Part shown: one piece after another, positions 7,600-28,248 of the stretch
Layout of the letters: each line of letters opens with the position of its first letter
How positions within the stretch are numbered: the stretch's first letter is position 1
From: Bacilli bacterium
GTDB taxonomy: Bacteria; Bacillota_I; Bacilli_A; RF39; UBA660
Length of the DNA stretch: 64,000 nt
Assembly (NCBI GenBank): GCA_051872765.1
Contig: JBJEED010000008.1
Span: 6,237 to 70,236, forward strand
Direction of reading: 5' to 3'
Notes under the pieces: model-generated
The model's input: only the letters and a program-made list of their open reading frames with translations
Told to the model about the DNA's origin: nothing
The model's database searches: none
Made by a program: the position numbers and the translations under genes

Positions 7600-7627
7600 A
7601 ATTTAAGAAAAGAAAGGAAAAAAGAAT

Positions 7628-10276: not shown

Positions 10277-10306
10277 TAGAATCCTCTTTTTTAAAGGAGA
10301 AGTAGT

Positions 10307-13183
10307 ATGGCTAGTAATGGAAATGCAAATAATGGAGTAGAAGAATCATCAAATAATAATATTTCAAGTTCTTCAACTACAGGAAGTAATCCTGTGGGTT
10401 TTTCTGGTGCATTAAAGCCAAATAAAGCAGATATAGATGCAATAAATAAAAGAGGTACAAACGGAGTAGAGCATTCTAAAACATTTAGAAAAAATAATAA
10501 TCTTGAAAAGCAGAGAGTAAGAACTTCTGAACTTGATAATGATGGTCTTGAAGATAAAACTAATTCTAAAATTGAAAGTAAATCTTCTAATACTAAAACT
10601 GATAATAAAGGAAAAGGAGAAAAATCAAAAAGTAAAAATAGTAGTGTTGTTGATATAGTATCAAAAAAGACTGGATTAAAATCCAAGTTATTAAAATTAA
10701 AACTTAAATTAATTATATTAGGTATAGTTTTGTCATTTTTTGTTATTATTTTTATAATTTCATATTTTATTGCCGCTTATGATGCATTATTAAATTCAAT
10801 ATCATCATTTTTTGGCATTTCCGAAACTGAAAGTGAAGAATCTTTATTGAAAAATGAAAAGTACTATATTGATCCTGAAACTGGAGAAGAATATAATACA
10901 GATGAATTAGTTGAGATGTTAAAGGAAGATGAACAATGTAAAACTACTTTTTTTAATGGTTTAAGTGATTGGTTAGATATGTTTGATGGTACAATAGACA
11001 GTTTTTGTACTTATACTAGATATGTGAAAAAAAGTATTGAAAAATTAGAAAAAAAATATCCAACTCTTCATATGGATAGAGCTTTAGTATTATCAGGAAT
11101 ATTTTATGGATACGCAGCTCAACCAAATTATTCTGAGTATATAGATAGTTATAATGCACCATATACAATTAGTGCGGCAGAACATTATGAATCTTTAATG
11201 GATATGCTTAAATCTGGTACTCTTACAGTTGATGATTTAGATGATATGATTAATAATGCAGTTGCCAATCATACACATCCTTATTATGAATGGCAAGTAG
11301 AAGATATATATGATAGAAAAGGAAAATTAATTGAATCTGTTGGTAAGTGTATTAAACAAGAGCAACAAGATGTAAAATATAGTCTACTTAGATGGCAAAT
11401 GTTTTTAAGATTTGGAGATAGTACAGTTAAAACCTATGATAAATTAATGATTAGAAAGAAAGCTTGGGCGTCATCTGATGTTGAATGTAATGGTACTGTA
11501 GATGATGCTACATTACTAGCAAAAATTTCTGCATCTGGAGCACCTAAAAATACTATTGATAATTCTGTTAGAGTTGCGCAAAAATATTTACAAGAGTATG
11601 AAGATCCACCTAATATGAATTTATTTGAACAAAAGGCAGAAATAGAAGGATATGAAAAAGATGTCTTTGAATCATATAATTATAAAGATATATCAGTTAA
11701 TTTTGATTATGTTAATGGATTTGCCTATAATAGATTTCCATACTTTAAAAGAGCATATGAATCTAATATGACTGAACTTTATTATGATGAAGCAATTACT
11801 CCAAAAGTAATTGAAACATTAATATTAAATTCAGAAGAAAAGAAAACGGTAATGAATGATATACTTAATTTTGAAGATCAAGATAATCCTTTAGCATATT
11901 CAAATTTTGGTACGATGTGGTCATCTGTTGGTGGAGCATATTGTGCAGATTATGTTGCAGTTCCATTTAATCAAATAGAGGTAATTATTAAAGATTGTGA
12001 TGGTAGAGAAATAGGCAAAACTAGTTTTAAAGACTATATTATGGGTGTAGCTTATGGAGAAGTAAGTGATAGACATGATGATTATGTTAAATCTGAAATG
12101 GTAGCCGCTATTAGTTATTCTCTTGCAAGAAGAGGAAATTATACAAAAGTTCCAACTATTACTATGAAATCAGGAAACTGTGATCAAGTTTATTGCCCAA
12201 TGAATTCAGGGTGCTCTAGTAATAAATCTAATTTAGATTGTGGTGGATTTTCATGTACTTCTTATTATCCAGGTACAGGTTATACTATGTATCATGGTGC
12301 AGCGGGAGATGCATTAATACAAAAATATGCAAGGTTATATGATGAAGCATCTCAATTCTTACTTGTTAAAGATGGTGCTGTATATAGTGCTGGCTATGTT
12401 TCAACTGTTCAAAATAAGTGGTATGAAATGGCTAAGAGTGGTATGTCATTTACTCAAATAATGCAAGAAACTTATGGTCCAGATGGTGCGGAACTCGTTC
12501 AGTGTATAAATATTGATGATTCTAATAATTCATCAACTATAGCCGATAATAGTATGGGAAATGGGCCTAGTACAGATAGTGTAACAATTAAGAAAGTTGG
12601 TAATACTATTAGTGAAAAGTATGATAAATTATCTCCAGATTTAGGTAAATTTTATGGTTATTCATACAATGATGATCCTGTTGGTAGAGATATTACTATT
12701 AACCCAGATTGGATTAATGCAAATATTATAACAATTAATACTACTTGGAATACATCATATAGAGTTAATACACAAGCAAAATATAATTTTGAACTTGCTT
12801 ATAAAAATATAGGAAATATACTTAATAATGGTGTTAAATTAAGTGATGGAAATATATGTAAATATACAATTGATGACTTACAAGGCGGAACAACATTTGA
12901 ACAAAGAAAATCATCAAGTGGTTTATTTAGTGAAGCATCTTATGGAATTGTTCAATCGTGGAATTATAATAAAGTATATACAATCAATAATAAAGTTTAT
13001 AAACCATATTCTAAGGGTAGTACGATAAGTGATTATAATGAATTTGTAGAGGCACTTGGAAGAGAAGAAGATTGTAGAAATATTAATTATATTTTATATA
13101 AATATGCGTATGAACCGGCAGGTTTTGTTTGGGGAAAAAATAGTGATAACTATGATAGTTCATTATTTAAAATAAATTATTAA
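10307..13183 (+). CDS. T4SS-associated cell-wall hydrolase. It has a low-complexity N-terminus, one TM, a SpoIID/LytB-like domain and a C-terminal M15 (LAS)-like domain whose metal ligands appear substituted.
   Basis: TM LIILGIVLSFFVIIFIISYFIAAY. The SpoIID-like pattern KDYIMGVAYGEVS...YVKSEMVAAISYSLARRGNY...SGNCDQVYCP is encoded at about nt 11935-12205. M15-like remnants are SEASYGIVQSWN (12929-12964) and GFVWGKNSDNYDSSLF (13121-13168). Confidence 0.65.
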   Translation: MASNGNANNGVEESSNNNISSSSTTGSNPVGFSGALKPNKADIDAINKRGTNGVEHSKTFRKNNNLEKQRVRTSELDNDGLEDKTNSKIESKSSNTKTDNKGKGEKSKSKNSSVVDIVSKKTGLKSKLLKLKLKLIILGIVLSFFVIIFIISYFIAAYDALLNSISSFFGISETESEESLLKNEKYYIDPETGEEYNTDELVEMLKEDEQCKTTFFNGLSDWLDMFDGTIDSFCTYTRYVKKSIEKLEKKYPTLHMDRALVLSGIFYGYAAQPNYSEYIDSYNAPYTISAAEHYESLMDMLKSGTLTVDDLDDMINNAVANHTHPYYEWQVEDIYDRKGKLIESVGKCIKQEQQDVKYSLLRWQMFLRFGDSTVKTYDKLMIRKKAWASSDVECNGTVDDATLLAKISASGAPKNTIDNSVRVAQKYLQEYEDPPNMNLFEQKAEIEGYEKDVFESYNYKDISVNFDYVNGFAYNRFPYFKRAYESNMTELYYDEAITPKVIETLILNSEEKKTVMNDILNFEDQDNPLAYSNFGTMWSSVGGAYCADYVAVPFNQIEVIIKDCDGREIGKTSFKDYIMGVAYGEVSDRHDDYVKSEMVAAISYSLARRGNYTKVPTITMKSGNCDQVYCPMNSGCSSNKSNLDCGGFSCTSYYPGTGYTMYHGAAGDALIQKYARLYDEASQFLLVKDGAVYSAGYVSTVQNKWYEMAKSGMSFTQIMQETYGPDGAELVQCINIDDSNNSSTIADNSMGNGPSTDSVTIKKVGNTISEKYDKLSPDLGKFYGYSYNDDPVGRDITINPDWINANIITINTTWNTSYRVNTQAKYNFELAYKNIGNILNNGVKLSDGNICKYTIDDLQGGTTFEQRKSSSGLFSEASYGIVQSWNYNKVYTINNKVYKPYSKGSTISDYNEFVEALGREEDCRNINYILYKYAYEPAGFVWGKNSDNYDSSLFKINY

Positions 13184-13197
13184 TATAAGGAGGAAGA

Positions 13198-13989
13198 ATG
13201 AATAAAGAGAAAAAAATTACATTTATGATTATTTTAACTGCAATAGTACTTTTATCTATTATTACTATTCCTCTTATTATCAAATATAATATAGAAAAAG
13301 ATAAAGATAATTTTCCTGAATATAAAGATATCGATATTGATGAAGATTTATTGAGTAATGAGCAAACTTATGAACAAATAAAAAAAGACTTACAAAATGA
13401 TTTCTACTTTAATAAACTTGCAATAATGACAGATTATGATTATAAAGAGTCATCTACTGAAAATTTACAAGACTTATTATGGCATTTTATATTTAATTAT
13501 GAATTATCTAATGACAGTTATTTTTCATATACTGATTCAGCAAATGGTAAATATTGTTTCAGTAAAAAGAACTTAATAAATGCTTTTAATGAATTTTATA
13601 AGTTGGATATTACAGATAAATATAATTATTTAGAAGGTTATTATAAATATGTTTATATTAGTTCAAAAGGATATTGCTTAGATTTTAAAAGGGTATCTGA
13701 TGAGTATGATAATAATATAAAAATAGCTATTGAGAGAATGTCTATTCTTGGTACTACTATAACAACAGATTTATATGTTTATGAATACTATGCAAGTTCT
13801 ACTAATGAAAAATATTATGAAAATTTATTAGGGCAAGCAATTGATAGTAAAGATTATTCCAAAGCTAAGACATTAGTTGAAAATTACTTAAATGGTACAG
13901 TAACTCATAAGCAAATACAATTTAAAAAGAATACTAGAGGAAAATATTTTAAATATCAAATTTTAGTTAGTAAAAAATTAGTTTATTAA
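13198..13989 (+). CDS. N-terminally membrane-anchored protein of the T4SS operon. It occupies the positional slot of VirB8/TcpC-like components, but homology is not established.
   Basis: 263 aa with a single N-terminal TM (ITFMIILTAIVLLSIITIPLII) and SD aaggagg. No diagnostic motif seen. Confidence 0.4.
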   Translation: MNKEKKITFMIILTAIVLLSIITIPLIIKYNIEKDKDNFPEYKDIDIDEDLLSNEQTYEQIKKDLQNDFYFNKLAIMTDYDYKESSTENLQDLLWHFIFNYELSNDSYFSYTDSANGKYCFSKKNLINAFNEFYKLDITDKYNYLEGYYKYVYISSKGYCLDFKRVSDEYDNNIKIAIERMSILGTTITTDLYVYEYYASSTNEKYYENLLGQAIDSKDYSKAKTLVENYLNGTVTHKQIQFKKNTRGKYFKYQILVSKKLVY

Positions 13990-14038
13990 TGAAAAAAAAT
14001 ATATTATATTGTATAATATATTTGTATGAGGTGAGACT

Positions 14039-16279
14039 ATGAAGTTGAAATTTAGAGCAGAGAAAAAAGATTTTATAATATTTCTTATTTTTTGCGGAGT
14101 ATTGTTATACTTAGTTGCTGTAGCTGTAGTTAATTTAAATAGTTTTGCAGTTGATGGAGTATTTAGTGGTTTAAATCCATTACCTGCATTTTCATTAGAT
14201 TTTATATTTTATACATTAGTTGTGTATATATTTGTAATAGCTGCATTAATGCTTGGTTGTTCTTCTTATTTTTTCGAAAGAGAAAAAGGTTTTGGTATAT
14301 CAACTGAACAAAAAAGTAAAAATGATGGTTATTCAAAACTAATGTCAGATAGTGAAATGAAAAAAGATCGTGGTATTGTTAAAATTAAGCTAACTGATGA
14401 TACTTATGAAGGAGGAGGTATTCCATTTATAAATGATGGAGTAAATGCATGGGTAGATAATAGTGGAGAACCACACGCACTTATTATGGGTGCTTCTGGT
14501 TCTGGTAAAACACAATGTATGATGTTTCCTCTTCTTAAAATTCTTGCAAGACATGGAGAAAGTGTTATTGTAACAGACCCTAAAGGTGAATTATATGAAG
14601 AATGTGGAAAGTTATTGCAGGAAAAGGGGTATAAAGTTATATTATTAAACTTCCGTGATCCTAAAGAAGGATCCGCATGGAATCCATTTAGTTATCCATA
14701 TAGAATATATAAAGAAGGAAATGTAGATAAAGCAAATGAATTGTTACAAGACCTTGCCAGTAATATATTAATAGATCCAAATAATAAAGCAGAACCATTT
14801 TGGGAACAAACAGCATCTAACTTTTTCACAGGATTATCACTAGGCTTATTTGATGATGCTCCTGAAGAAGAAGTTAATATTAATAGTATTAATATGATGG
14901 CGGAAGTTGGTGAGGATAGAATTGGTCCATCAACTTATATAAAAGAATATTTTAAAGCTAAGGGAGAGTTATCTCCTGCCTATATAGCAGCAGCATCTTG
15001 TATAAATGCACCTAATGAAACTCGTGGTGGAATTATGTCTACATTTAGAACAAAGACAAGAATTTTCTCATCACAAGAATCATTATCAGAAATGCTTTCA
15101 TATAGTGATTTTGATATTAGGGATATTGGAAAAGAAAAAACTGCAATATTCTTAAAAGTTCACGATGAAAAAACAACTTATCATGCTCTTGCTACTATAT
15201 TTGTAAAACAAGCATATGAAGCATTGATTGCAACGGCTCAAACATTTCCTAATTTAAAACTTCCTTATAGAACTAATTTTATATTAGATGAATTTGCAAA
15301 TATGCCTGCTATTAAAGATATTGGAACAATGATAACTGCATCTCGTTCAAGAAATATTAGATTTAGTTTCGCTATTCAAAACTTTTCACAATTAAATCAA
15401 GTATATGGAAAAGAAGTTGCAGAAACAATTAAAGGTAACTGTGGAAACTTTGTTTATATCATGAGTACAGAATTAGCTGCTTTAGAGGAAATTAGTAAAT
15501 TACTTGGTGATCAAAAACCTGATAAACCTAAAAAAGATGAACCAGCGCCACCAATTAGACCATTATTTACTGTAAGTGATTTACAAGCGTTAAAAGAAAA
15601 TGAAGTTATATTTAATAGATTTAGAAGTATGCCTTATAAAACTAAACTTACTCCAAACTGGAAAATTGACTGGGGAAGAAAATATGAAAAAATGGGATAC
15701 TCTCAAAGGCCACCACATGAAGTAAAGGTTTTTGATTTAAAAGATTTTGTTCAAAAGTTAAAGGATAAACAAGGAGTTCCTGTTGGATCAGGAATGCCTG
15801 GTGGTTTTAGTGCTGGTATGCCAGGAATGGTAGGTATGCCGGGAATGGTAGGTGGAGGTATGCCAAATCCATTTGCTAGTCCAGGGCCTGTACCAGGAGG
15901 TAGAGGATCATCATCTGGAATTGTACCTACGAGTCTTGATGACTATGTTAGAAAACTTGATGAAAAAATTGCTGAGCTAGAAAGAGAAGAAGCAGAAGAA
16001 AAAGCAAGACAAGAAAAAGAAAAGCAAGCATTATCACAAGGTGTAGTAGAGCAAAAAGAAGTTGTGAAAGAAAAGACACAAGAAGAAATACAAAAAGAAA
16101 TGAATGATATATTTAATCATAACTTAAAAGGAATTACAAGTGAAGAGGAAAAAAATACACAACAATCAACTTACGAAAATATAGAGAATCCTAAAGTTAA
16201 TGTTGATGTTGATAGTGTTGTTGTAAAAAACAATAATAATGATGATGATTTCTTTGATGATTTCTTTGGAAGTGAATAA
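14039..16279 (+). CDS. VirD4/TraG-family type IV coupling protein with an unusual C-terminal tail
   Basis: Two N-terminal TMs. Walker A IMGASGSGKTQ, VTDPKGELYE, Walker B NFILDEFANMPAI, SRSRNIRFSFAIQNFSQLNQVYG. The tail contains GMPGGFSAGMPGMVGMPGMVGGGMPNPF, a coiled coil, and ends DDDFFDDFFGSE. Confidence 0.85.
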   Translation: MKLKFRAEKKDFIIFLIFCGVLLYLVAVAVVNLNSFAVDGVFSGLNPLPAFSLDFIFYTLVVYIFVIAALMLGCSSYFFEREKGFGISTEQKSKNDGYSKLMSDSEMKKDRGIVKIKLTDDTYEGGGIPFINDGVNAWVDNSGEPHALIMGASGSGKTQCMMFPLLKILARHGESVIVTDPKGELYEECGKLLQEKGYKVILLNFRDPKEGSAWNPFSYPYRIYKEGNVDKANELLQDLASNILIDPNNKAEPFWEQTASNFFTGLSLGLFDDAPEEEVNINSINMMAEVGEDRIGPSTYIKEYFKAKGELSPAYIAAASCINAPNETRGGIMSTFRTKTRIFSSQESLSEMLSYSDFDIRDIGKEKTAIFLKVHDEKTTYHALATIFVKQAYEALIATAQTFPNLKLPYRTNFILDEFANMPAIKDIGTMITASRSRNIRFSFAIQNFSQLNQVYGKEVAETIKGNCGNFVYIMSTELAALEEISKLLGDQKPDKPKKDEPAPPIRPLFTVSDLQALKENEVIFNRFRSMPYKTKLTPNWKIDWGRKYEKMGYSQRPPHEVKVFDLKDFVQKLKDKQGVPVGSGMPGGFSAGMPGMVGMPGMVGGGMPNPFASPGPVPGGRGSSSGIVPTSLDDYVRKLDEKIAELEREEAEEKARQEKEKQALSQGVVEQKEVVKEKTQEEIQKEMNDIFNHNLKGITSEEEKNTQQSTYENIENPKVNVDVDSVVVKNNNNDDDFFDDFFGSE

Positions 16280-17176: not shown

Positions 17177-18256
17177 ATGGATTATATAATTATATGTTTG
17201 TTAATAATAGTGATAGTTTTATTAATAATATTAGTTTTAAGAAAAAATGATAATTCAGATATAAATGAAAAATTATCTAGAACAGAAATTAATGTTATTA
17301 AGGAAATAGGGGATTTTAAGCATGATTTTTCTAGCAATTTAAATAAAGATTTTAATACATTAAATGATAGGATTGAGCATAAATTAAATTTAATAAATCA
17401 AAAAGTTAATGAAAAGTTAGAAGATGGTTTTGATAAAACAAATAAAACTTTTAATGAAGTTATGAATAGACTTACTAGAATAGATGAGGCTCAAAAGAAA
17501 ATAGATGGGCTTGGAAGTGAAATAATATCTTTAGAAAGTATATTAACTGATAAGAAGAGTAGAGGCATATTTGGAGAGGTTAATTTATATCATATTTTAT
17601 CATCAATATTTGGTGAAAAAAATGATAATATTTATAAAACTCAATATACCCTTTCTAATACTCTAGTTGCAGATGCAATATTATTTGGACCAGAACCACT
17701 TGGTACAATTTGTATAGACTCTAAATTTCCTCTTGAAAATTATAGAAGACTTGTTGAAAAAGGACTTACTAGTACAGAAAGGGAAGCTAGAAGTAAAGCA
17801 TTTGATAATGATGTTAAAAAACATATAGATGCAATAGCATCAAAATACATAATAGCTGGAGAAACAACTGATCAAGCAATAATGTTTTTACCAGCTGAAG
17901 CAATATTTGCTGAAATAAATGCTTATCATACAAATTTAATAAAGTATGCTGCGAGTAAAAAAGTATGGATAACATCTCCTACGACATTAATGAGTTTATT
18001 AACTATAATTCAATCAGTGTTAATGGGACTTGAAAGAGATAAATATACATCAGTAATTCATGAAGAATTAAATAAATTAGGTGTAGAATTTGGAAGATAT
18101 AGAGAAAGATGGGATAAATTATCAAGAACTATTCAAACAGTTAATAATGATGTTGAAAATATACATAAAACTACTGAAAAGATTACAAAGAGATTTGATA
18201 GCATTAATAATGTTAAGATAGAAAATGATGATATTCAATTAGTAGAAAAACAGTAA
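17177..18256 (+). CDS. rmuC: DNA recombination protein RmuC
   Basis: N-terminal TM and coiled coil. SRGIFGEVNLYHILSSIFG, ADAILFGPEPLGTICIDSKFPLENY, MFLPAEAIFAEI. SD aggagg. Confidence 0.9.
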   Translation: MDYIIICLLIIVIVLLIILVLRKNDNSDINEKLSRTEINVIKEIGDFKHDFSSNLNKDFNTLNDRIEHKLNLINQKVNEKLEDGFDKTNKTFNEVMNRLTRIDEAQKKIDGLGSEIISLESILTDKKSRGIFGEVNLYHILSSIFGEKNDNIYKTQYTLSNTLVADAILFGPEPLGTICIDSKFPLENYRRLVEKGLTSTEREARSKAFDNDVKKHIDAIASKYIIAGETTDQAIMFLPAEAIFAEINAYHTNLIKYAASKKVWITSPTTLMSLLTIIQSVLMGLERDKYTSVIHEELNKLGVEFGRYRERWDKLSRTIQTVNNDVENIHKTTEKITKRFDSINNVKIENDDIQLVEKQ

Positions 18257-18287
18257 AAAAGAATCACTTTAAAATGATTCTTTTTTT
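18257..18287 (+). terminator. rho-independent terminator after rmuC
   Basis: aaaagaatca (18257-18266) pairs with tgattctttt (18275-18284), followed by a T-run. Confidence 0.75.
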
Positions 18288-18375
18288 AGATTTTTATAAG
18301 TGTTTTTGTTGTAAAAATATGTCTAATATGATAAAATTAATTAAAGTAGGAGACTATGCAATTTAGAGGAGCAGT

Positions 18376-20388
18376 TTGACTATGAAGGAAAGAAGAATAT
18401 TAGAAATACTTATTAATATATTATTAGATTTGTTAATTGTTATATTTGGAATTATATTGTTATTCTCAATATATAATAGTGCTCAGACAAAAATATTTGG
18501 CAATGATTATTCAAGTCTATTTGGTTATTCAGTATTTGAAGTACAATCAGGTAGTATGAGAGATAAGATAGATATCGGAGATTGGATTATTGTTAAATAT
18601 AGTACAGATATTAAGTTAGATGATATTATTACTTATAAAAAAGATGATAATTTTATAACTCATAGAGTTGTTGAAGAGTATGTCGATACATATGTAACAA
18701 AGGGAGATGCTAATAACACTAAGGATGAGGCAATAAGCAAGAGTCAAGTCATTGGTAAAGTAGTTAAAATATTACCAAACTTTGGTATTCTTAAAAAAAC
18801 TTTATTTAATCCAATTGTTTTAATAGCATTAATTATCACATTGTATTTATTCAGTTATGTATTTAGAAGTATTAAAAATAGTAAGGATGAAGCAAATATA
18901 AATAAAAATACAAGAACTAAAATAGATGCCCTTATAACAAGATTGTTAAATAAACTTATGTCATTAAAGGACAATAATAAAACTGAATCTAAAAAGAAGA
19001 ATGTATTAGAAGTTGTAGAAGAGAGAACAATAGAATCTAATTCATCTTTTGAAGAGAATAATGATGAAGAAGATTTAGAAGATGATATAGATGAAGAAAT
19101 AGAAATAACACCAATGGATATGGAACAAACAAGATTCTTTAGAATGGTTAGTGTTAATAAAGGTGATGTGGATGGAGTTTATAATAAAAAGAATATAAAA
19201 AAATCAGAAATAATAATTGAAGATTCTAATATTAGTGAAGAAGAGATAGAAAGTAAAACAGAAGCTGAAGTAAAAAAATGCGTAACTGAATTACAAAGCA
19301 AAAAGAAAAAGTTTAAAAATATAATAGATAAGATAATGTATATTAAAGAAGATGAAATTAATTCAATAATTAATGTACTAAATAGAAAAGAAAAGTTCAA
19401 AACAAATGAAAGTACAATAAATGATAGTTTTTTAAAAACATATATATATGCTAGATATTATGGATTATGTGATGATGGAAATTTAGAATATAATTCTAAA
19501 AATATGAATTCTAAGATAAATGAAGTAATAAAAAATAAAGCCACTCAAATGATATCTCAGTATAAAGGTAGTGATAATTTATATGAAGAAAAAGTTGATA
19601 AATATATTAAGTTTTATATGCTTATAAATATTTTAGAAAGTTATAATATTCAGTTTAAAGATATAACTTCTAAAAGAGAAAGTTATAAAAATAAAATATT
19701 ACCAGTACTTAAAAATGAATTGACAAGTGGTCTTGAACTTATGGATATAATTAATAAAATAATTATTATTCAAAAAGTACATTCTAAAATATTAAATTCT
19801 TCATTAGAGAAGTTAAATTCTAATACATTTTCATTGCAAGTAGAGAGTATTGATAAAAATATGTATGCAGTAAATTTAAAGCATAATATTAATTTTAGTA
19901 AGGTTTATAGTGATTATATAGTTGATAAAACTTATTCAGAAGGTGTAATCGCAGAAGATAAAACTATGATAATGATTACTATGTTAATTTCTATAATAGT
20001 TAATGATATGTTAAATAGTAGTTTTAAAAATAAATATTTTATACATGTACCATCTAGTGTATATGAAAAAAGAAATAAACTTGATAGAATATTTGATATG
20101 TTTGATGATGATAGAGGACGTGAGAGTATAATTATTGTTAATGACTATTATGAGGTAATTAAAAATAAAAAAGTTATTAAGGAACTTAAAAAATCAGGCT
20201 ATCATTTTGCAATAGCATTTAGCAAAGAATCTGTCATTAATAGTAAAGATGCTAGCAATATAGTACTTGGAGAATATATAATTGCTAAAAATGAAGTAGT
20301 TGAAAAAATTAAACTTATGGAATTTATTCCAGAAGAATTAAAAGATAAAATAGTTAATGATGATGCTTATTTAAAAATAATAGATTAG
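18376..20388 (+). CDS. SipW-type (S26B, Ser-His) signal peptidase I fused to a ~500-aa cytoplasmic extension of unknown function
   Basis: The N-terminal 165 aa comprise a TM, VQSGSMRD (Ser box), ITHRVV (His box), TKGDANNTKDE and a second TM IVLIALIITLYLFSYVF. An acidic linker and a ~400-aa domain follow. The extreme C-terminus (YFIHVPSS...IIIVNDYYEVIKNKKVIKELKKSGYHFAIAFSKE...GEYIIAKNE) faintly resembles a degenerate EAL-type fold. The start is TTG 18376 or ATG 18382. Confidence 0.7.
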   Translation: MTMKERRILEILINILLDLLIVIFGIILLFSIYNSAQTKIFGNDYSSLFGYSVFEVQSGSMRDKIDIGDWIIVKYSTDIKLDDIITYKKDDNFITHRVVEEYVDTYVTKGDANNTKDEAISKSQVIGKVVKILPNFGILKKTLFNPIVLIALIITLYLFSYVFRSIKNSKDEANINKNTRTKIDALITRLLNKLMSLKDNNKTESKKKNVLEVVEERTIESNSSFEENNDEEDLEDDIDEEIEITPMDMEQTRFFRMVSVNKGDVDGVYNKKNIKKSEIIIEDSNISEEEIESKTEAEVKKCVTELQSKKKKFKNIIDKIMYIKEDEINSIINVLNRKEKFKTNESTINDSFLKTYIYARYYGLCDDGNLEYNSKNMNSKINEVIKNKATQMISQYKGSDNLYEEKVDKYIKFYMLINILESYNIQFKDITSKRESYKNKILPVLKNELTSGLELMDIINKIIIIQKVHSKILNSSLEKLNSNTFSLQVESIDKNMYAVNLKHNINFSKVYSDYIVDKTYSEGVIAEDKTMIMITMLISIIVNDMLNSSFKNKYFIHVPSSVYEKRNKLDRIFDMFDDDRGRESIIIVNDYYEVIKNKKVIKELKKSGYHFAIAFSKESVINSKDASNIVLGEYIIAKNEVVEKIKLMEFIPEELKDKIVNDDAYLKIID

Positions 20389-20401
20389 TGGGAGGTAAAA
20401 T

Positions 20402-21949
20402 ATGAATACATTTTTAAGATTCTTTTATGAATTTATTTCTGTATTCTTTGATGGCTTATTTAGTGGTTTTAAAGGCTTATGGAATGGAATTAAAGAAATG
20501 TTTAAAATTAGTAAGTATGCAAAAATATTAGGAGAATATAAAGAAAGTTTTAATGGTAATGAAAAAGTATTCGTTATTTTATGTATAATCTTCTTAGTAT
20601 TAATAATACTTATGATAGCTATGATTTTATATCTAGTAATCAAGAAGTTAATTAGAAGAGCTACTAATAGAATGAGTAGAGAAGAATTACTTGAAGAAAT
20701 AGCAGGACTTAATGATAAAGTTCGTAAATTAATGAAAGAAAAAGAAGAATTAATGGCTATGAAAGTTTCCCAATTAGGATTAAATCCAGATGATAAAGAA
20801 AGTAATCAAAAAGATAAAAATAAAGATGGAGAAAATGAATCTGAGTCAGAAGAATTTGATAAAGAAACAGCTATTAGATTCCCAACTCTTACATTAATAG
20901 ATGAAGAATATAAGAATTATAAGATTAAAAATTATGAAAATAACTTTACTTTAAAAGAGTTAGTTGATAATTTTAGATGTTTTGCAGCAAGTCAATTAAA
21001 ATTATATTATTCAGAAACATTATTAAGACCTTTTATAGCAGGGCTTGCTTGTGGTAAATTAATTATTTTGCAAGGTATATCTGGTACAGGTAAAACTTCA
21101 CTTGCTTATGCTTGGGGAAAATTTGTATGTAATGATTCTTGTGTTTCTTCTGTAGAACCTTCGTGGAGAGATAAAACTGATTTCTTAGGATATTTTAATG
21201 AACTTACTAAAAAATTTAATGAGACAAGAGCACTTGGTGAGATATATAAAGCAGGATATGATGATAATGTTCATACTATTATATTAGATGAAATGAATTT
21301 AGCTCGTGTTGAATATTATTTTGCTGATTTATTATCAATACTAGAAATGCCAAGGAGAGAAGAATGGTTAGTAGATATTGTTTCTAGTCCATGGCCAAAA
21401 GATCCTAAAAAAATAGAAAAAGGTAAACTTAGATTACCTGGTAATTTATGGTATATTGGTACGATTAATAATGATGATTCAACTTTCCTTGTTACAGATA
21501 AAGTTTATGATAGAGCAATGCCAATAGATATTAATGATAAAGTACCAGCTTTTAAATGTAGAGAACAAGAGGCAGTTCCTATGAATTCTAGTTATTTAGA
21601 ATCATTGTTCCAAGAGGCAATTGATAAATATCCTCTATCTGATAAAACTTTAAACGAAGTTACTAAAATAGATGATTATGTAATTGAGCATTTTAGAATT
21701 GCTTTTGGTAATCGTATTATGAAACAATTAGGTGTATTTACAGCAGTATATGTAGCATGCGGCGGTAAAGAAATGGAAGCAATTGATTACTTTATTGCTA
21801 AGAAAATATTAAGAAAATTTGATCAATTAAGTATTTCTTATATTAGGGATGAAATAGATCCATTCATTTCATTCTTAAATAAAAATTATGGTAAAGGTAC
21901 TATGAAAGAATGCATAGCATTTTTAGAAAGAATTAAGAAAAGTATATAG
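20402..21949 (+). CDS. membrane-anchored McrB-family (COG1401/AAA_5-like) AAA+ NTPase
   Basis: TM VFVILCIIFLVLIILMIAMILYLVI, then coiled coil SREELLEEIAGLNDKVRKLMKEKEELMAMK. McrB-type core: LQGISGTGKTSLA (Walker A, about nt 21074-21100), IILDEMNLARVEYYFADLLSILE, LPGNLWYIGTINNDDSTFLVTDKVYDRA. Confidence 0.75.
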   Translation: MNTFLRFFYEFISVFFDGLFSGFKGLWNGIKEMFKISKYAKILGEYKESFNGNEKVFVILCIIFLVLIILMIAMILYLVIKKLIRRATNRMSREELLEEIAGLNDKVRKLMKEKEELMAMKVSQLGLNPDDKESNQKDKNKDGENESESEEFDKETAIRFPTLTLIDEEYKNYKIKNYENNFTLKELVDNFRCFAASQLKLYYSETLLRPFIAGLACGKLIILQGISGTGKTSLAYAWGKFVCNDSCVSSVEPSWRDKTDFLGYFNELTKKFNETRALGEIYKAGYDDNVHTIILDEMNLARVEYYFADLLSILEMPRREEWLVDIVSSPWPKDPKKIEKGKLRLPGNLWYIGTINNDDSTFLVTDKVYDRAMPIDINDKVPAFKCREQEAVPMNSSYLESLFQEAIDKYPLSDKTLNEVTKIDDYVIEHFRIAFGNRIMKQLGVFTAVYVACGGKEMEAIDYFIAKKILRKFDQLSISYIRDEIDPFISFLNKNYGKGTMKECIAFLERIKKSI

Positions 21950-21965
21950 AAAGGATTAGATTTAT

Positions 21966-23117
21966 ATGGCAAATAAAAATAAATACTCAATTAATAAAAT
22001 AGATGAAAATCTTAAAATTAATGTAAATCATTTTTTAAGTAATATAGAATCAGATATGTTATATAAGTCTAATTATTATGGTGATTTGTTAGATTTTGAT
22101 TGGTTAGATGAAATAGAAAAAGCATGTCCTCATATAGATACTATTGTTAGAAATCCTAAATTAACATTAATTAAGGAAGAAGAAGTAGTTAAGATGGAAA
22201 AGGCTAAAGTAATAACAGTAGAAACTATTAAAGATTTAGCAAAACATACAAACTATATTGATAAATTTGATACTTCAAAGGATAAAGTTGAGCCTAAAAA
22301 AGTTCTAATGGTTCATAGTGAAGAAACATTTAATATATATGAAAATAGATTTTTATATACTTTAATAGATTGTATTGATAGATTTGTTGCAAAAAAAGAA
22401 AATGATTTTAAATCAGTTAATGATTTAAATGATACTAAATTTATTGAATATAGTGGTAATAGTAAAACTGAGACTGAAAAAATTCATATAGATCTTAAGA
22501 TTACATCAGATATAATAAATGTTGATAATATTAATGATAATGTTAAAAAAGAAATTAAAGATGCTTTAAAAAGAATTAAGAGAATAAAAGAATATTTAGG
22601 TAGTTGGCGTAAAAGTGCGATGTATCAAGAATTAGAAAAACAGCATGTATCTCTTATTCAACCACCAATAAAGAAAACAAATATTATATTAAAAAATCCT
22701 AATTTTGGAATTGCAACAAAATTATGGGATTATTTAAGAAAATATGATTTAGAAGATTATAGTGAAGAAAGGTTAAGAAATGATATTGAAAGAGAAAAGA
22801 ATGATTTAAAATCTTTAATAGATCATAGTTTCTTTATTAATTTTTGTGTACTATCTTCTATCAGTAAATATAAAAAAGAGCAAAGACAAAAAATATGTGA
22901 TCATGCAGTAGTATTATTAACAGAGGAAATAAGAAATGTTATTTCAATACTTCAAAATAATGGTTATGAGATAACAGATGAAGAAATATTGCAAATGATG
23001 GCTAAAGAAATAAAGAAAAAACCTGTTAGTAGTAGATTAGCAGGTATGGAAGATGTTAAAAACAAATTTAAAACAGCAATGGATGAATATTTAGAAAGGA
23101 CACAAGATTACTTGTGA
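21966..23117 (+). CDS. McrC-N-terminal/DUF2357-like partner protein, with no clear nuclease motif
   Basis: It directly follows the McrB-like gene. WLDEIEKACPHIDTIVRNPKLTLIKEEEVVKMEKAKVITVETIKDLAKH...TFNIYENRFLYTLIDCIDRFV resembles the region of McrC-like proteins that contains an ENRF-type motif. Only a weak D...IDLK candidate (aa 153-178) is present for a PD-(D/E)xK site. Confidence 0.45.
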   Translation: MANKNKYSINKIDENLKINVNHFLSNIESDMLYKSNYYGDLLDFDWLDEIEKACPHIDTIVRNPKLTLIKEEEVVKMEKAKVITVETIKDLAKHTNYIDKFDTSKDKVEPKKVLMVHSEETFNIYENRFLYTLIDCIDRFVAKKENDFKSVNDLNDTKFIEYSGNSKTETEKIHIDLKITSDIINVDNINDNVKKEIKDALKRIKRIKEYLGSWRKSAMYQELEKQHVSLIQPPIKKTNIILKNPNFGIATKLWDYLRKYDLEDYSEERLRNDIEREKNDLKSLIDHSFFINFCVLSSISKYKKEQRQKICDHAVVLLTEEIRNVISILQNNGYEITDEEILQMMAKEIKKKPVSSRLAGMEDVKNKFKTAMDEYLERTQDYL

Positions 23118-23127
23118 TAAGGATTAA

Positions 23128-23700
23128 ATGAAGAAAGCGATAAAAATAATAAAGAATATTTTTAATGTATTAATTGTTACATTTGTAGTACTTTTTGTAT
23201 TAGTAGTATGTTTACAAAGATTCAGTGATAACAAACTCTCAATATTTAGTTATCGTATGTTTACGGTAGTATCAGGAAGTATGGAACCTAAATATAAAGT
23301 AGGAGATGTGTTAATAGCTAAAGAAGTTGAACCATCAGAAATTAAGATTGGAGATCCAATTAGTTATTTAGGAAAGGTAGGTCAATTTAAAGATAAAGTT
23401 ATAACACATGAAGTGGTTGAAATAGAGGAGTATGAACCTAAGAAATATAGATTTCATACTAAAGGACTTTCAAATATAGTTGAAGATCCAATTGTTGATG
23501 AAACTCAATTATATGGAAAAGTAATTTATAAAACTGTAATATTATCATTTATATATAGTATTGTTTCTAAACCAATAGGTATGTTCATATTAGTATTAGT
23601 TCCAATAATGTATATAATTATTTCTGAAATAATTATAACTTTAGTCGAAAAAGAAGAAAAAAGAAGAGGGCTAAAAAAGGAAACTAAAGAAGATAAATAA
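23128..23700 (+). CDS. sipW: signal peptidase I, SipW type
   Basis: 190 aa with an N-terminal TM, VVSGSMEPKYKVGDVLIAKE, ITHEVV, a HTKGLSN region, a C-terminal TM and a basic tail. Confidence 0.85.
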   Translation: MKKAIKIIKNIFNVLIVTFVVLFVLVVCLQRFSDNKLSIFSYRMFTVVSGSMEPKYKVGDVLIAKEVEPSEIKIGDPISYLGKVGQFKDKVITHEVVEIEEYEPKKYRFHTKGLSNIVEDPIVDETQLYGKVIYKTVILSFIYSIVSKPIGMFILVLVPIMYIIISEIIITLVEKEEKRRGLKKETKEDK

Positions 23701-23725
23701 AAAATAAGCAAAAGGAGGCATTGAA

Positions 23726-24892
23726 GTGAAAGAAAGATATAAAACATATTTAAAATTGAATCTTGTTTCTATATTTTTTATAGCAGTTTCTTTTATTTCG
23801 ATTTCTCTTGCATGGTTTGCTTATAGTGGACTTGTTCGTACTCAAACTGAAATAGATGTTAAAGCTTGGCATATAGAGTTTAATAAAAATGGAGAAGCCG
23901 TATCTAATAATGTAGTTATATCTCTTAGTGATATACAGCCTGGAATGAATAGTACATATGAAAAAATAAATATTAAGAACTATGGTGATTCTGATGCTAA
24001 AATATCATATAAAATAGAAGAGGTTAGAATATTAAATGAAGATTTAAGCATCCCAATTGAATTTGGTTTAATAGAAGATAAATTAGCTAATGATTATCCA
24101 TTTAGCATTAATGTTTCCTTAAATAAAAAATATTTAGATGCTAAGACTGGCGAAGCAGTATTAAATATTGGTGTTGCTTGGCCACTTGATTCAAATACTG
24201 ATGAAGAAGATAGCTATTGGGGAAATTTAGCTTATGAGTATCAACAAACTAATCCAGATGCTCCTTCTATTAAAATTGTGATAGTTATTAAAGCAGAACA
24301 AAATACTGATAATTATAAATATAATTCAGGAGATGTATTTTTATATGATGCTGTTAATAATGTTAAATGTGATAAATTAGGAAATACATGTATTAAAACT
24401 CATATATTAAATACTAATGTAAGTGAGGGTGATGAATTACTTTTACTTCCTGATTTATATGATACTTATCATAGTGGTACATTTAATGAGTATGATACTT
24501 TACTTACAAATACATGGGCTGTAGATAATAGAGATTTAAAATTAAGTGATATATTAAATTTAGTATCTCAAGATATTGACAATACTTATCTTATAAGAAA
24601 TAATTTATCTGATAGAATAATAGGATACATTGAATATAATAATAGATTTGATAGTTATTTAAATAATATTATTAAACCTTATAATTCTTATATTAAATAT
24701 GATACAACAAAATATAGTTTTTTATCATCTAGTAATTGTTATTGGATTAACACTGAATATAATGAAACTCAGGCTTTTGCACTTGTTAAAGATCAAAATA
24801 AAGGAAACATAATTACTCCATATGATAAAACAAATACTTGTAGTGTTATTCCTGTAATAACTTTAAATAAAAGTGTATTAATAAATGAATAG
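23726..24892 (+). CDS. exported protein with a SipW-cognate-type signal peptide, a TasA/camelysin-like N-domain and an extra C-terminal domain
   Basis: GTG start after SD aggagg. The signal end ISLAWFAYSG compares with TasA/CalY ...WAAFND / FAYFSD. ISLSDIQPGMNSTYEKINIKNYGDSDAKISYKI matches the TasA-family beta-sandwich pattern. The C-terminus is ...CYWINTEYNETQAFALV...NTCSVIPVITLNKS. Confidence 0.6.
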   Translation: MKERYKTYLKLNLVSIFFIAVSFISISLAWFAYSGLVRTQTEIDVKAWHIEFNKNGEAVSNNVVISLSDIQPGMNSTYEKINIKNYGDSDAKISYKIEEVRILNEDLSIPIEFGLIEDKLANDYPFSINVSLNKKYLDAKTGEAVLNIGVAWPLDSNTDEEDSYWGNLAYEYQQTNPDAPSIKIVIVIKAEQNTDNYKYNSGDVFLYDAVNNVKCDKLGNTCIKTHILNTNVSEGDELLLLPDLYDTYHSGTFNEYDTLLTNTWAVDNRDLKLSDILNLVSQDIDNTYLIRNNLSDRIIGYIEYNNRFDSYLNNIIKPYNSYIKYDTTKYSFLSSSNCYWINTEYNETQAFALVKDQNKGNIITPYDKTNTCSVIPVITLNKSVLINE

Positions 24893-24898
24893 TTAAAG

Positions 24899-24928
24899 AA
24901 CAATACTTCATATAAGGTATTGTTTTTT
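24899..24928 (+). terminator. rho-independent terminator ending the 18.4-24.9 kb operon
   Basis: aacaatac (24899-24906) pairs with gtattgtt (24917-24924), followed by tttt. Confidence 0.75.
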
Positions 24929-24984
24929 AGTAATAAAATTTATTAAATCAAATGCAATACTTAATTTGATAAATTATCGTAAGA

Positions 24985-25010
24985 AAAAAAGAATAACTTA
25001 ATATTCTTTT
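24985..25010 (-). terminator. terminator of the convergent 203-aa gene
   Basis: aaagaata (24988-24995) pairs with tattcttt (25002-25009). The hairpin is flanked by A-runs and T-runs and sits immediately after the minus-strand stop codon. Confidence 0.6.
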
Positions 25011-25622
25011 TTAAATCTTTTGTGTAAATTGTATATTAGCTTTAATTTGTAAATTATCTTGAGTATTTGATACTTGAGTATCTGAAATATCATCCATTAA
25101 TTCATTTTCTCCTTCATACCATTCAAAATATATTCTAATTGTAAATGGTTCAAATGAATAATTTTCTTCTTGATTATCATAAATTAAAGTTCCTTTTATT
25201 TGATTATTTTCAATATTATTTAATGTAAGTGTATCATTTTCATTATATGAGCTATCTATTAGTGAGTAATTACTTATTAATAAGTCTGGCATATCTTGAT
25301 TTAATAATTCAAGTGTTATAGTGTAATCAAATGATAATTCTACATTTGTAGGATCTACTAAAATATCAAAATATCCTTTAGAAGTAGGAGCGAATGTATT
25401 TGCCTTTATATTTTCATTTTCTTCTAAAACTGGAGCAAGTACTATTTCTGAAGAATTATTATCTGTTATATCATTTTCATTAATTAATATTTGCCATTTA
25501 GAAAATTGCATTTCTAAATTACTTGCGGCATCAACAATATATCTAGAGTAAGTATTACTAATTAATGATATTGTAAATGTCGATACTATAAGTACTAATA
25601 ATACTTTTAATTTATTCTTCAT
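25011..25622 (-). CDS. small exported protein with an N-terminal signal/anchor, probably a SipW-substrate-class (TasA-like fold) protein
   Basis: MKNKLKVLLVLIVSTFTISLISNTYSRYIV..., then FAPTSKGYFDILVDPTNVELSFDYTITLE, a pattern common in SipW-dependent exported proteins. SD ggaggagg. Confidence 0.5.
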   Translation of the reverse strand: MKNKLKVLLVLIVSTFTISLISNTYSRYIVDAASNLEMQFSKWQILINENDITDNNSSEIVLAPVLEENENIKANTFAPTSKGYFDILVDPTNVELSFDYTITLELLNQDMPDLLISNYSLIDSSYNENDTLTLNNIENNQIKGTLIYDNQEENYSFEPFTIRIYFEWYEGENELMDDISDTQVSNTQDNLQIKANIQFTQKI

Positions 25623-25797
25623 GTTACCTCCTCCTTATCTTTACTTTATTATATATTATACATTTAATATACACAATTATTTACATAAAAAAAGTGAAAT
25701 AAAATGTAAAGTTTTACATATAATTTTACAATTATTACATAAATTAATGCTTGATTATTTAATATTAATATAATATTATAAGTCATAGGTGATTTTT

Positions 25798-26928
25798 ATG
25801 GAAAATAAAAACAATATCAATAAAGAAATGTTATTTGCTAAATCTTTTTATCTTCTTGGAAAATCTATGGATACATGTTATGATTGTTCTTATTGTAGAC
25901 TTAATGGGGAAAAGTGTGAGAGTAAACAATATGAAGTAATACCTAGTGATATTAATCCTATATTTACTAATTTGCCGGTTGCTGTTAATTTATTTTATGG
26001 AGATCCTTTGTTACAAATAGAACAAACTATTAAATATTTAGAACAATTAGAGCAAGCTGGTCATAAAGGAATAGTAACAATTATTACTAAAGGAGATTTT
26101 AGTAAGTTTCCTGATAGAGAGTTTAATTTAGATTTACATATTGCTTTTTCAACGTTTGGTGTAGATTCTTATTTAGATGGTAGTTCTATGAGTAGGTTTG
26201 AAAATAATTTGAGTCAAATTGAAAAACGAAAACATAATTATAAATATTCAATAGAGTATAGGCCAATAGTATATAATATAAATGATAGTGAAGAAGCATT
26301 TAATAGGGTAATTCAACTTGCTAAAAAATACAACCTTTCAATTGGATATTCTGGTCTTCAAGGTAAAAAAGAAAGTGTTAAAATATGGAATGAAATGGGA
26401 TATTCTGAGTTACAGCCTTATCCTGGTTATAATTTTGGCCATAAGAAAATCATAGATGAAAAGGTTATTAAACTATTTGAAACAATAGCTAAGAGGGAAG
26501 GAGTGAATGTTTTTAGAAAAACTTCTTGTTTATTTTCATATACTCATGGACTTGATAGAGACTATAATGCTCATTATTATAGACCAAGTGAACTTGGATG
26601 TGAAAATTGTATAATGAGAGAAAAATGTATGGAATATAAAGCTAATTTACCTCTTGATAATAATTTAAGTGATATTATTCCATTTGATTATGAAATTGTT
26701 CATAAAGATAAACATATATGTATTCTAAAGCAAAAGGGTATATGTGAGTTCCCAACAGAGGATTGTGGAAAAATAAGTGGAAATATTATTAGAATTAACG
26801 ATATAATAACAACATCAGATGTTAGGGTTATAAAATGGTTAACTGGTTACACAGTTGATGCTGATTTTTTTGAATCGCCATATATAAGTGAAAACTGGTC
26901 TATGGGACAAAAAATATTAAAAAAATAA
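25798..26928 (+). CDS. Cys-rich protein, possible Fe-S / radical-SAM-like enzyme (uncertain)
   Basis: N-terminal cluster TCYDCSYC (CxxCxxC), followed by barrel-like segments (VAVNLFYGDPLL, VTIITKGD). C-terminal Cys clusters are CENCIMREKC and CILKQKGICEFPTEDC. ATG 25798 follows SD aggtga. Confidence 0.35.
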   Translation: MENKNNINKEMLFAKSFYLLGKSMDTCYDCSYCRLNGEKCESKQYEVIPSDINPIFTNLPVAVNLFYGDPLLQIEQTIKYLEQLEQAGHKGIVTIITKGDFSKFPDREFNLDLHIAFSTFGVDSYLDGSSMSRFENNLSQIEKRKHNYKYSIEYRPIVYNINDSEEAFNRVIQLAKKYNLSIGYSGLQGKKESVKIWNEMGYSELQPYPGYNFGHKKIIDEKVIKLFETIAKREGVNVFRKTSCLFSYTHGLDRDYNAHYYRPSELGCENCIMREKCMEYKANLPLDNNLSDIIPFDYEIVHKDKHICILKQKGICEFPTEDCGKISGNIIRINDIITTSDVRVIKWLTGYTVDADFFESPYISENWSMGQKILKK

Positions 26929-27078: not shown

Positions 27079-27086
27079 AAAATATA

Positions 27087-27206
27087 TCTTATAAAGAGTG
27101 ATTGAGGGACTAGCCCTATGAAATCACACCAACCTATTAGATTAGGTGGTAAAGCTAGAACGATAAGATAACTTTAGTACTCAAGGTTATCTTGGGTATT
27201 TTTTTA
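27087..27206 (+). promoter_or_regulatory. SAM-I (S-box) riboswitch with intrinsic terminator
   Basis: P1 tcttat (27087-27092) pairs with ataaga (27163-27168). Conserved core: AGAGtGattGAGGGActaGCCCtatGAAatCac...CAACC...GGTGgTAAagC. Terminator arm aagataac (27165-27172) pairs with gttatctt (27186-27193), followed by a T-run. The 5' terminator arm overlaps the 3' strand of P1. Confidence 0.85.
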
Positions 27207-27228
27207 TAGGATAAAAGAAGGAGGATAT

Positions 27229-28248
27229 ATGAAATATTATAGTAATGAAATAGTGTTTAGAGGTCATCCTGATAAAGTGTGTGATCAAATAAGTGATGCT
27301 TTATTAGATGAATGTTTGAAGCAAGATAAGAATAGTTGATGCGCTATTGAAGTAATGGGTGGTAAAGGAAAGATATTTATTACTGGTGAAATTACTACTA
27401 AAGCAAAATTAGATGTAATTAATATTACTAAAAGAGTACTTAGAGATGTTGGTTATGATACTAATTATGAGATAGTAGACAACTTAGGAAAGCAAAGTGT
27501 AGACATTGCTCTTGGAACAAATGATAAAGTAGGTGGTGCTGGGGATAATGGAATGATGTTTGGATACGCATGTAAGCAAACAGATAAATATTTGCCACTA
27601 TCTATGGTGATTCTTTAAGAATTTAGTGAATCTTATGATAAACTAAGAAAAAAAGATAGTAGATTTAAAAGTGATGGTAAAGCACAAATAACAGGTATTT
27701 ATGATAATAATAAATTAGTAGCTATAAAATACTTTACTATTTGTTATCAAAATACAGAAACTCAAAGGGATAAGACAGATAAAATATTAATAGATATAGC
27801 TAATAATATAGTAAATAAATATCAAATTAATGTAGAAAACTATTTGATAAATCCAACAGGAAGGTTTTGTATTGGAGGTTTTGATGGAGATGCCGGACTT
27901 ACAGGTAGAAAAATTGTAGTTGATAGTTATCAATCTTTTGCAAATGTTGGTGGTGGTGCTTTTTCTGGAAAAGATCCTAGTAAAGTTGATAGAAGTGGTG
28001 CTTATAAAGCAAGAGAAATTGCAAAAGAATATGTTAAAAATAATAATTATGAATGGTGTTTAGTACAATTATCTTATGCTATTGGTAAAGAAGAGCCACT
28101 AGCAATATATATAACAACCGATAAGGGAGATATAAATGTTCCTAAAAAGCTATATAAGGAATGCAAACCAAAAAATATAATTAAAGATTTAAATCTTAAA
28201 AATATATGTTATGAAGATAGGGCAAAATTTGGTCATTTTAGAGATTAA
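27229..28248 (+). pseudogene. metK: S-adenosylmethionine synthetase gene interrupted by two in-frame stop codons
   Basis: One reading frame gives [28 protein letters not shown]...KNS*CAIEV...GAGDNGMMFGYAC...PLSMVIL*EFSE...INPTGRFCIGGFDGDAGLTGRKIVVDSY...GGGAFSGKDPSKVDRSGAY. TGA lies at 27337-27339 (aligned to the conserved Arg of ..ARVACE..). TAA lies at 27616-27618. There is no frameshift. Confidence 0.85.

Follow-up and report, generated by a model that had tools for sequence, protein, structure and literature searches.

A McrB-type GTPase encoded among SipW-type signal peptidases and exported proteins: a CoCoPALM locus of a Bacilli bacterium and its possible link to surface fibres

Why would a GTPase of the kind found in McrBC restriction enzymes be encoded, with a membrane anchor, in one operon with signal peptidases and exported proteins? 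The question is raised by a six-gene locus (positions 18376-25622) of the stretch of DNA analysed here, hereafter the window, which comprises 64,000 nucleotides of contig JBJEED010000008.1 from a Bacilli bacterium (assembly GCA_051872765.1). The original prediction, made from the letters of this DNA without database searches, knew of no described system of such composition. The class had, however, already been named: the locus is a member of CoCoPALM, introduced by Bell et al. in 2024, and our contribution is one documented member together with additional anatomy. A cytoplasmic module, consisting of a predicted NxD-type McrB GTPase (p2), a putative activator resembling the N-terminal part of McrC and without detectable nuclease (p3) and a third domain (p1C), is coupled genetically, and here also physically, to two SipW peptidases (the N-terminal domain of p1, and p4) and to the exported proteins p5 and p6, of one family with a predicted jelly-roll fold. 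Class membership together with a functional coupling of this module to surface-fibre biogenesis is the reading that we consider probable, and we infer from it a role in fibre building; any specific motor mechanism is given much less weight. The six genes (extents and lengths from the list of open reading frames, ORFs) and their parts are the following:

18376-20388, + strand: p1, 670 amino acids (aa)
18376-18900, + strand: p1 residues 1-175, signal peptidase I domain of the SipW/endoplasmic reticulum (ER) type (TIGR02228, hydropathy)
18901-19365, + strand: p1 residues 176-330, charged and poorly conserved linker on the cytoplasmic side (composition; seen weakly, in the closest relatives only)
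19366-20388, + strand: p1 residues 331-670, or p1C, cytoplasmic helical bundle and alpha/beta domain (AlphaFold2)
20402-21949, + strand: p2, 515 aa, predicted membrane-anchored McrB-type AAA+ GTPase (McrB structures in PDB, alignment A1, hydropathy)
21966-23117, + strand: p3, 383 aa, homologue of the McrC N-terminal region (Pfam DUF2357)
23128-23700, + strand: p4, 190 aa, stand-alone SipW/ER-type signal peptidase I (TIGR02228)
23726-24892, + strand: p5, 388 aa, predicted exported protein whose N-terminal ~200 aa belong to the p6 family (similarity to p6, iterated searches)
25011-25622, - strand: p6, 203 aa, predicted exported protein convergent with p1-p5, candidate major fibre subunit (AlphaFold2, alignment A3, ribosome-binding site)

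The arrangement of five co-oriented genes facing a convergent sixth is as first described; the spacers, which had been put at 9-25 nt, measure 10-25 nt (13, 16, 10 and 25 nt, in order from p1 to p5).

In a survey of McrBC systems (Bell et al., eLife 2024, PMC11090510), a large branch is delineated in which the GTPase carries NxD in place of NxxD, usually followed by D or E. CoCoPALM is named within this branch: its GTPase is a fusion with an FtsB-like transmembrane and coiled-coil region, and is associated with a McrC homologue (often with a coiled coil and without active nuclease) and with genes of the signal-peptidase family. The class is covered there in one paragraph, without a component list, and its analysis is deferred to a later paper. 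Our literature search found no follow-up paper on CoCoPALM, and a search combining SipW and McrB returned nothing but the genotype of an E. coli strain.

None of the other proteins of the locus comes close to p2 in conservation. Its AAA+ module begins at about residue 190 and matches E. coli McrB in a phmmer search of PDB (6hz4, E 2.6e-5, residues 196-390; 6ut6, E 3.7e-5), the two structures together spanning residues 192-390. The NCBIfam McrB family PRK11331 was also hit (E 1.4e-5), far under its family cut-off. Walker A (G225-T232, GISGTGKT), Walker B (D296-E297, LDEMN) and an NxD motif (N356-D358) were located in this module. In alignment A1, which holds 16 p2 orthologues down to 32% identity, no substitution occurs in the two Walker motifs, at N356 or at D358, and residue 359 varies among D, E and Q. 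Upstream of the module, a conserved amphipathic segment, a membrane segment (residues 49-87), a basic stretch, a charged helix (~91-125) and an acidic linker follow one another, and both the membrane segment and the charged helix are conserved across A1. Pfam and NCBIfam scans found no DNA-binding family in residues 1-190, and no Pfam domain was found in the N-terminal extensions of 10 wider AAA+ relatives. The prediction of a McrB-family AAA+ protein with an N-terminal transmembrane segment is thus upheld, and p2 is presumably hexameric and held at the membrane by this segment.

The adjacent p3 matches Pfam DUF2357 (41 bits for a cut-off of 23.3; E 1.7e-10), as expected of the McrC-N-terminal-like protein that had been announced. 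The same family is matched by all 25 members of the p3 family (p3 and 24 relatives), and none of the 25 matches a nuclease family profile. A p3 profile searched against PDB retrieved neither a solved McrC nor a solved nuclease, and it is the Pfam DUF2357 match alone that points to a kinship with McrC. A heuristic places a heptad-like segment at residues 178-220 of p3, and its C-terminal part is helical; the DUF2357 proteins of two related loci (L081 and L082) carry long K/E-rich tails. Compared with the canonical McrBC of E. coli K-12 (PDB 6hz4, 6ut6), the locus shares the AAA+ GTPase fold, the Walker A and B motifs, the sensor Asn and a DUF2357 partner, the part which in McrC activates the hexamer. 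It differs by a membrane anchor in place of the DNA-binding N-terminal domain, by NxD rather than NxxD, by a partner without detected PD-(D/E)xK nuclease, and by an operon that includes peptidases and exported proteins.

Both peptidases foreseen in the locus score above the cut-off (51.85 bits) of NCBIfam TIGR02228, the archaeal/ER-type signal peptidase I: 71.5 bits for the N-terminus of p1 and 82.2 bits for p4. The two domains are 37% identical. By hydropathy, each is flanked by two membrane segments (residues 5-38 and 136-167 of p1; 3-35 and 136-175 of p4), and the catalytic Ser and His are retained in both (SGSM and THR in p1, SGSM and THE in p4). As the peptidase domain of p1 lies between its two membrane segments, the remaining ~500 residues are therefore expected on the cytoplasmic side, in agreement with the cytoplasmic domain originally described. 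The scores for NF046067, the Bacillus SipW equivalog, are 51 (p1) and 73 (p4) for a cut-off of 190, so that neither protein is an orthologue of B. subtilis SipW.

Signal-peptidase-family proteins are also encoded in a streptococcal surface-fibre locus: SipA/LepA, which serve in pilus assembly. Streptococcal SipA is a homologue of the bacterial P-type and has lost the catalytic Ser and His, whereas the window peptidases are of the ER/SipW type and both intact. About 30% of the 193 SipW-like ORFs in loci L001-L084 lack the catalytic Ser and His (L040:5767-6294 and ~55 others). Related loci thus often contain an inactive peptidase paralogue, recalling SipA, while both window copies are intact. 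In addition, L078:12646-13908 presents a SipW and a p5-like exported protein in a single ORF, the cause being another type of fusion or else a sequencing error.

The neighbourhood census that the original prediction had proposed was run on 84 loci, four of them being copies of one place; several loci are cut by contig ends, and the counts are therefore lower bounds. The genes for p2 and p3 are adjacent in all 84 loci, a SipW-like gene is present in 81, a gene of the exported family in 73 and a convergent p6-like gene in 68. The relatives of p2 amount to at least 8000 matches, the best 120 listed being at least 69% identical over the full length. With one genome per GTDB species, at least 584 relatives were counted, of which the best 80 are full-length at 48-77% identity, and p2 orthologues occur in at least 80 species-level genomes. 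The metagenome-assembled genomes (MAGs) carrying these relatives are labelled Bacilli, Tenericutes, Mollicutes, Erysipelotrichaceae or Clostridium sp. CAG:567, the most distant being Oscillospiraceae, Lachnospiraceae or Clostridia. The linkage is kept from close relatives (77% identity for p2) to Clostridia MAGs (48-50%), in which the membrane-anchored GTPase and a K/E-tailed DUF2357 protein sit amid SipW genes and exported proteins of the YAWFT type. The association of the GTPase with SipW and exported genes is therefore conserved rather than fortuitous, and for this reason a nucleoside triphosphate (NTP)-driven device coupled to processing or assembly of SipW substrates, one of the options first put forward, is favoured over chance adjacency. 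Among 2.9 million viral contigs, only 3 distant p2 relatives were found (29-33% identity). The conservation and abundance of p2 fit a core cellular machine better than a patchy defence gene.

The third cytoplasmic component is p1C, which is present in 76 of the 84 loci. It is fused to a SipW domain in 21 loci, which form the clade nearest to the window, and encoded as a separate ~330-aa gene in 55, lying directly upstream of p2 in all but one of these (54/55). Because p1C is separate in 55 loci and fused only in the 21 nearest, the SipW::p1C fusion is lineage-specific; it physically ties the peptidase to the cytoplasmic module and may serve as a pointer to proteins that are likely in contact across the membrane. 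No p1C is present in the five most divergent loci or in the Clostridia versions. An intermediate form, exemplified by L040 on a 1.55-Mb MAG chromosome, has the order SipW, exported, SipW, exported, exported, p1C, p2, p3, SipW, exported, convergent exported. The much larger locus of related genomes (L040:5767-16525) adds to the p1C-GTPase-DUF2357 core three flanking genes of the SipW-like kind and six or seven for exported paralogues, and the window version looks like a reduced form in which SipW and p1C are merged into one gene.

The AlphaFold2 model of p1C has a predicted local distance difference test score (pLDDT) of 86 and a predicted template modelling score (pTM) of 0.81, and is composed of a helical bundle, a beta hairpin and a domain in which beta and alpha elements alternate. 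Fourteen of its top 16 Foldseek matches are EAL domains. The best is FimX (4ag0; E 8e-4, probability 1.0, template modelling (TM) scores 0.33/0.44), followed by LapD, all of them weak; the leading two are catalytically dead EAL domains that bind cyclic di-GMP (c-di-GMP). On the basis of this model, the domain is tentatively described as EAL-like. Homology to EAL by sequence was tried and rejected: Pfam EAL matches none of 27 p1C family members, the family profile has no match among PDB sequences, hhalign against a canonical EAL alignment built from PDB sequences gives a probability of 0.06%, and the EAL and DDFGTG signatures are not present, which leaves the weak fold match alone.

With these components, the locus can be set beside the published outline of CoCoPALM. 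Both have an NxD McrB-type GTPase placed after a transmembrane helix and a helical or coiled-coil segment, an adjacent DUF2357 McrC homologue and signal-peptidase-family genes, in Bacillota. The locus differs by a short putative coiled coil in the GTPase and by peptidases that both keep Ser and His, the outline being too brief for a detailed comparison. It has in addition a conserved third cytoplasmic protein, p1C, here fused to SipW; neither this partner nor the fusion is found in the account of Bell et al.

On the outer side of the membrane, p5 and p6 each possess one N-terminal signal-type membrane segment by hydropathy and resemble each other over their first ~60 residues. They are treated as one family, since iterated searches from the N-terminal part of p5 and from p6 share 67 ORF matches, including proteins with signal peptides ending in YAWFT. 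In the AlphaFold2 model of p6 (pLDDT 71.5), a signal/anchor helix (residues 2-23) precedes a disordered segment (23-40) and a jelly-roll beta-sandwich. Segment 23-40 is conserved (TYSRY), and T24, Y25, S26, Y28 and W43 are invariant in the family (alignment A3). With these features and the strongest ribosome-binding site of the locus, p6 is a candidate for the major fibre subunit.

The C-terminal ~190 aa of p5 (residues ~200-388) are restricted to the closest clade (L001-L020, L073) and match no family, most relatives having a ~200-aa protein at the p5 position. In NCBI, an entry from a MAG labelled "Bacilli bacterium" has the same protein sequence as p6.

Both proteins had been called TasA-like, a description which holds as an analogy only. 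A homology to TasA was searched and rejected. The Pfam Peptidase_M73/TasA/camelysin family matches neither p5, nor p6, nor 10 exported paralogues of related loci; the NCBIfam model of the SipW-cognate signal, TIGR04088, matches neither p5 nor p6 at E up to 1; a 53-sequence profile of the exported family matched no solved structure in PDB; and Foldseek with p6 gave nothing specific, TasA not being among the 50 fold matches listed. One paralogue elsewhere (L040:15470-16525) scores 18.1 for TIGR04088, just under the cut-off of 19, and the likeness of YAWF and TYSRY to the WAAF of TasA was judged by eye only.

The analogy with TasA systems would lie in an ER-type peptidase reserved for the substrates, signal peptides that end in an aromatic motif, an N-terminal segment left free and a beta-sandwich. 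In tapA-sipW-tasA of Bacillus subtilis and sipW-bsaA-bsaB-bsaC of Clostridium perfringens, as here, an ER-type peptidase is dedicated to neighbouring exported beta-sandwich proteins, and in these substrates the signal peptide ends with the aromatic motif and the N-terminal segment is unstructured. However, p5 and p6 lack detectable TasA/camelysin homology, the locus has no TapA or VWA protein, and those operons contain no NTPase, whereas the locus combines two peptidases with a three-protein cytoplasmic module. Within the six genes and the loci read, neither a sortase gene nor an LPXTG pilin was noticed.

In TasA, BsaA and AbpA fibres, the N-terminal segment of each subunit complements its neighbour (PMC9674648, PMC11580942, PMC9245690). 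A comparable sequence of events can be proposed for the window. The subunits p5 and p6 would be exported by Sec and kept anchored by their signal peptides. SipW would then cleave them beside the aromatic motif (TYSRY in p6, AWFAYS in p5), and the freed, unstructured N-terminal segment would insert into the neighbouring subunit, giving a surface fibre. From the cytoplasmic face, the GTPase ring of p2, activated by p3, would gate or power a step of this process, acting through the membrane-spanning SipW::p1C and through the membrane anchor of p2 itself. In its strongest version, CoCoPALM would be a new NTP-dependent assembly of surface filaments in Gram-positive and wall-reduced Bacillota: a tethered GTPase ring, with the McrC-N protein and the p1C adaptor, would drive or license SipW cleavage and subunit insertion, the motor of a restriction enzyme being put to a new use, in a manner unlike sortase pili, type IV pili or the self-assembling fibres of TasA. 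We advance this version tentatively, as a possibility that falls well short of being probable.

Several observations weigh against the coupling to fibre biogenesis and its motor version. The N-terminus of p2 does not match the FtsB/DivIC family (hmmscan, E up to 1); its helix is short, and the heptad heuristic called no coiled coil. By sequence, p5 and p6 match no known pilin or TasA family, and the fold matches of p6, from a model of moderate confidence, are generic jelly-rolls (viral capsids, carbohydrate-binding modules) with TM scores of ~0.3. The EAL-like view of p1C likewise comes from weak fold matches of a model only, the sequence-profile tests being negative. TasA, BsaA and AbpA fibres need no NTPase, which leaves the GTPase without an explained role, and we know of no experiment on any CoCoPALM system. 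Among the nearest relatives of the GTPase, finally, are the CoCoNuTs, which are predicted defence proteins (PMC11090510), and the PADLOC defence candidate PDC-M26A.

Should the coupling prove real, the cell envelope would have taken over a motor hitherto known from DNA restriction alone, a striking exaptation. It would also be the first NTPase tied to SipW-dependent fibres, which occur in Bacillus, Clostridium and archaea and are thought to be assembled without energy input. The system is abundant in the uncultured, small-genome gut Bacilli of humans and livestock, and may shape the attachment or aggregation of a large and little-known part of the gut microbiota.

The best-placed rival is an inside-out switch instead of a motor: p1C would sense a cytoplasmic nucleotide (for example c-di-GMP, as LapD and FimX do) and, with the GTPase as a timer, toggle the extracytoplasmic SipW, so that fibre production follows the signal. 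LapD controls the protease LapG. The fold matches of p1C, nearly all EAL and led by FimX and LapD, suggest such a role, as does the joining of p1C, through a membrane segment, to the peptidase domain in this lineage, which resembles the LapD-LapG pair by linking a cytoplasmic domain across the membrane to an extracytoplasmic protease function. Moreover, the best-conserved stretch of p1C (domain residues 173-199) forms a loop at the surface, modelled with low confidence, as would befit a binding site. However, the fold resemblance, which concerns the C-terminal half of p1C, is limited to TM scores of 0.33-0.44, and the sequence tests reported above are all negative. The locus further differs from LapD/LapG and FimX by the lack of HAMP and GGDEF domains as well as of EAL signature residues and sequence similarity, and from LapD/LapG by a fused signal peptidase in place of a separate cysteine protease. 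The Clostridia versions being without p1C, this domain cannot be the core of the mechanism. We therefore regard the switch as unlikely.

A second rival is a McrBC-derived membrane defence or abortive-infection system, the other option of the original prediction, in which the GTPase pair would detect nucleic acid entering the cell, with the peptidases and the exported proteins as effectors that might, for instance, alter the surface so as to prevent adsorption. Consistent with it, p2 falls in an NxD clade whose other members, the CoCoNuTs, are predicted defence systems, conjugation genes lie nearby in the window, and p2 matches PADLOC PDC-M26A at 1.3e-38. This match is partial, covering profile positions 201-431 of 724, and most likely reflects common ancestry within the NxD clade. 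PADLOC found no match for the other five proteins and the full PDC-M26 component set is not present; a literature search on PDC-M26 found nothing. Family scans detected no nuclease, toxin, nucleic-acid-binding domain or other effector in the six proteins. In contrast to defence islands, the synteny is stable from 77% to 48% identity over at least 80 species-level genomes, in which the flanks vary; the viral contigs, for their part, contain almost no orthologues. These results weaken the option to the point where we hold it to be improbable.

A chance neighbourhood, in which a McrBC remnant would lie beside an unrelated sipW/fibre locus, is hardly credible: both modules exist separately elsewhere (PMC11580942) and nothing further speaks for it, whereas the constant p2-p3 pair, the SipW genes in 81 of 84 loci, the SipW::p1C gene directly upstream of p2, the 10-25 nt gaps and the lack of any internal terminator found between p1 and p5 speak against it, and the linkage is conserved while the genes flanking the operon vary among genomes, which excludes it.

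The limits and expression signals of the p1-p5 unit and of p6 were located as follows, the z scores giving the folding energy relative to shuffled sequences:

18255-18292, + strand: intrinsic terminator of the upstream rmuC gene and 5' boundary of the unit (AT-rich hairpin and U run, -9.7 kcal/mol, z -3.4)
18309-18337, + strand: candidate sigma-70-type promoter (TTGTAA, 17 nt spacer, TAAAAT, TG extension; 9 of 12 consensus matches), which is weak evidence as the frequency of such matches is not above chance in this AT-rich DNA
24895-24932, + strand: intrinsic terminator closing the p1-p5 unit (AT-rich hairpin and U run, -12.1 kcal/mol, z -5.5)
24978-25012, - strand: intrinsic terminator of p6 (AT-rich hairpin and U run, -7.7 kcal/mol, z -3.6)

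The terminators that had been placed at 18257-18287 and 24899-24928 were therefore recovered as hairpins folding better than their shuffles. A GC-based terminator scan was blind to both, because the G+C content of the window is 24%. A Shine-Dalgarno-like site precedes each of the six genes, the strongest ribosome-binding site of the locus being AAGGAGGAGG, upstream of p6. From the spacing to its AGAGGAG site, p1 probably starts at ATG 18382 rather than at TTG 18376.

Among the surrounding genes, the one upstream of p1 is rmuC (Pfam RmuC, 9e-58). Further upstream, a type IV secretion/conjugation cluster (5626-16279, + strand) encodes a TrbL_4-like protein, a TraG P-loop/VirB4-like ATPase and a VirD4-type coupling protein (1e-51); the operon does not keep this neighbour in other genomes. 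Downstream of the locus, an RF00162 S-adenosylmethionine riboswitch (64.4 bits, 27086-27169) precedes a metK-like frame (region 27086-28248, + strand) that two in-frame stop codons interrupt, TGA at 27337 and TAA at 27616. The same metK gene is in three pieces in two independent Logan assemblies, so that an assembly error is not the cause, and the gene is a genuine pseudogene or is recoded. A genetic code reading TGA as Trp, suspected from this frame, was rejected: code 11 leaves the six genes and their neighbours uninterrupted, and the metK frame contains a TAA as well as a TGA. Between p6 and metK, and divergent from p6, lies a gene (25789-26928, + strand) for a 379-aa cytoplasmic protein that is Cys-rich (CYDCSYC...C near the N-terminus) and has no Pfam match; two independent assemblies of the organism (L088, L089) likewise have it as the next gene after p6.

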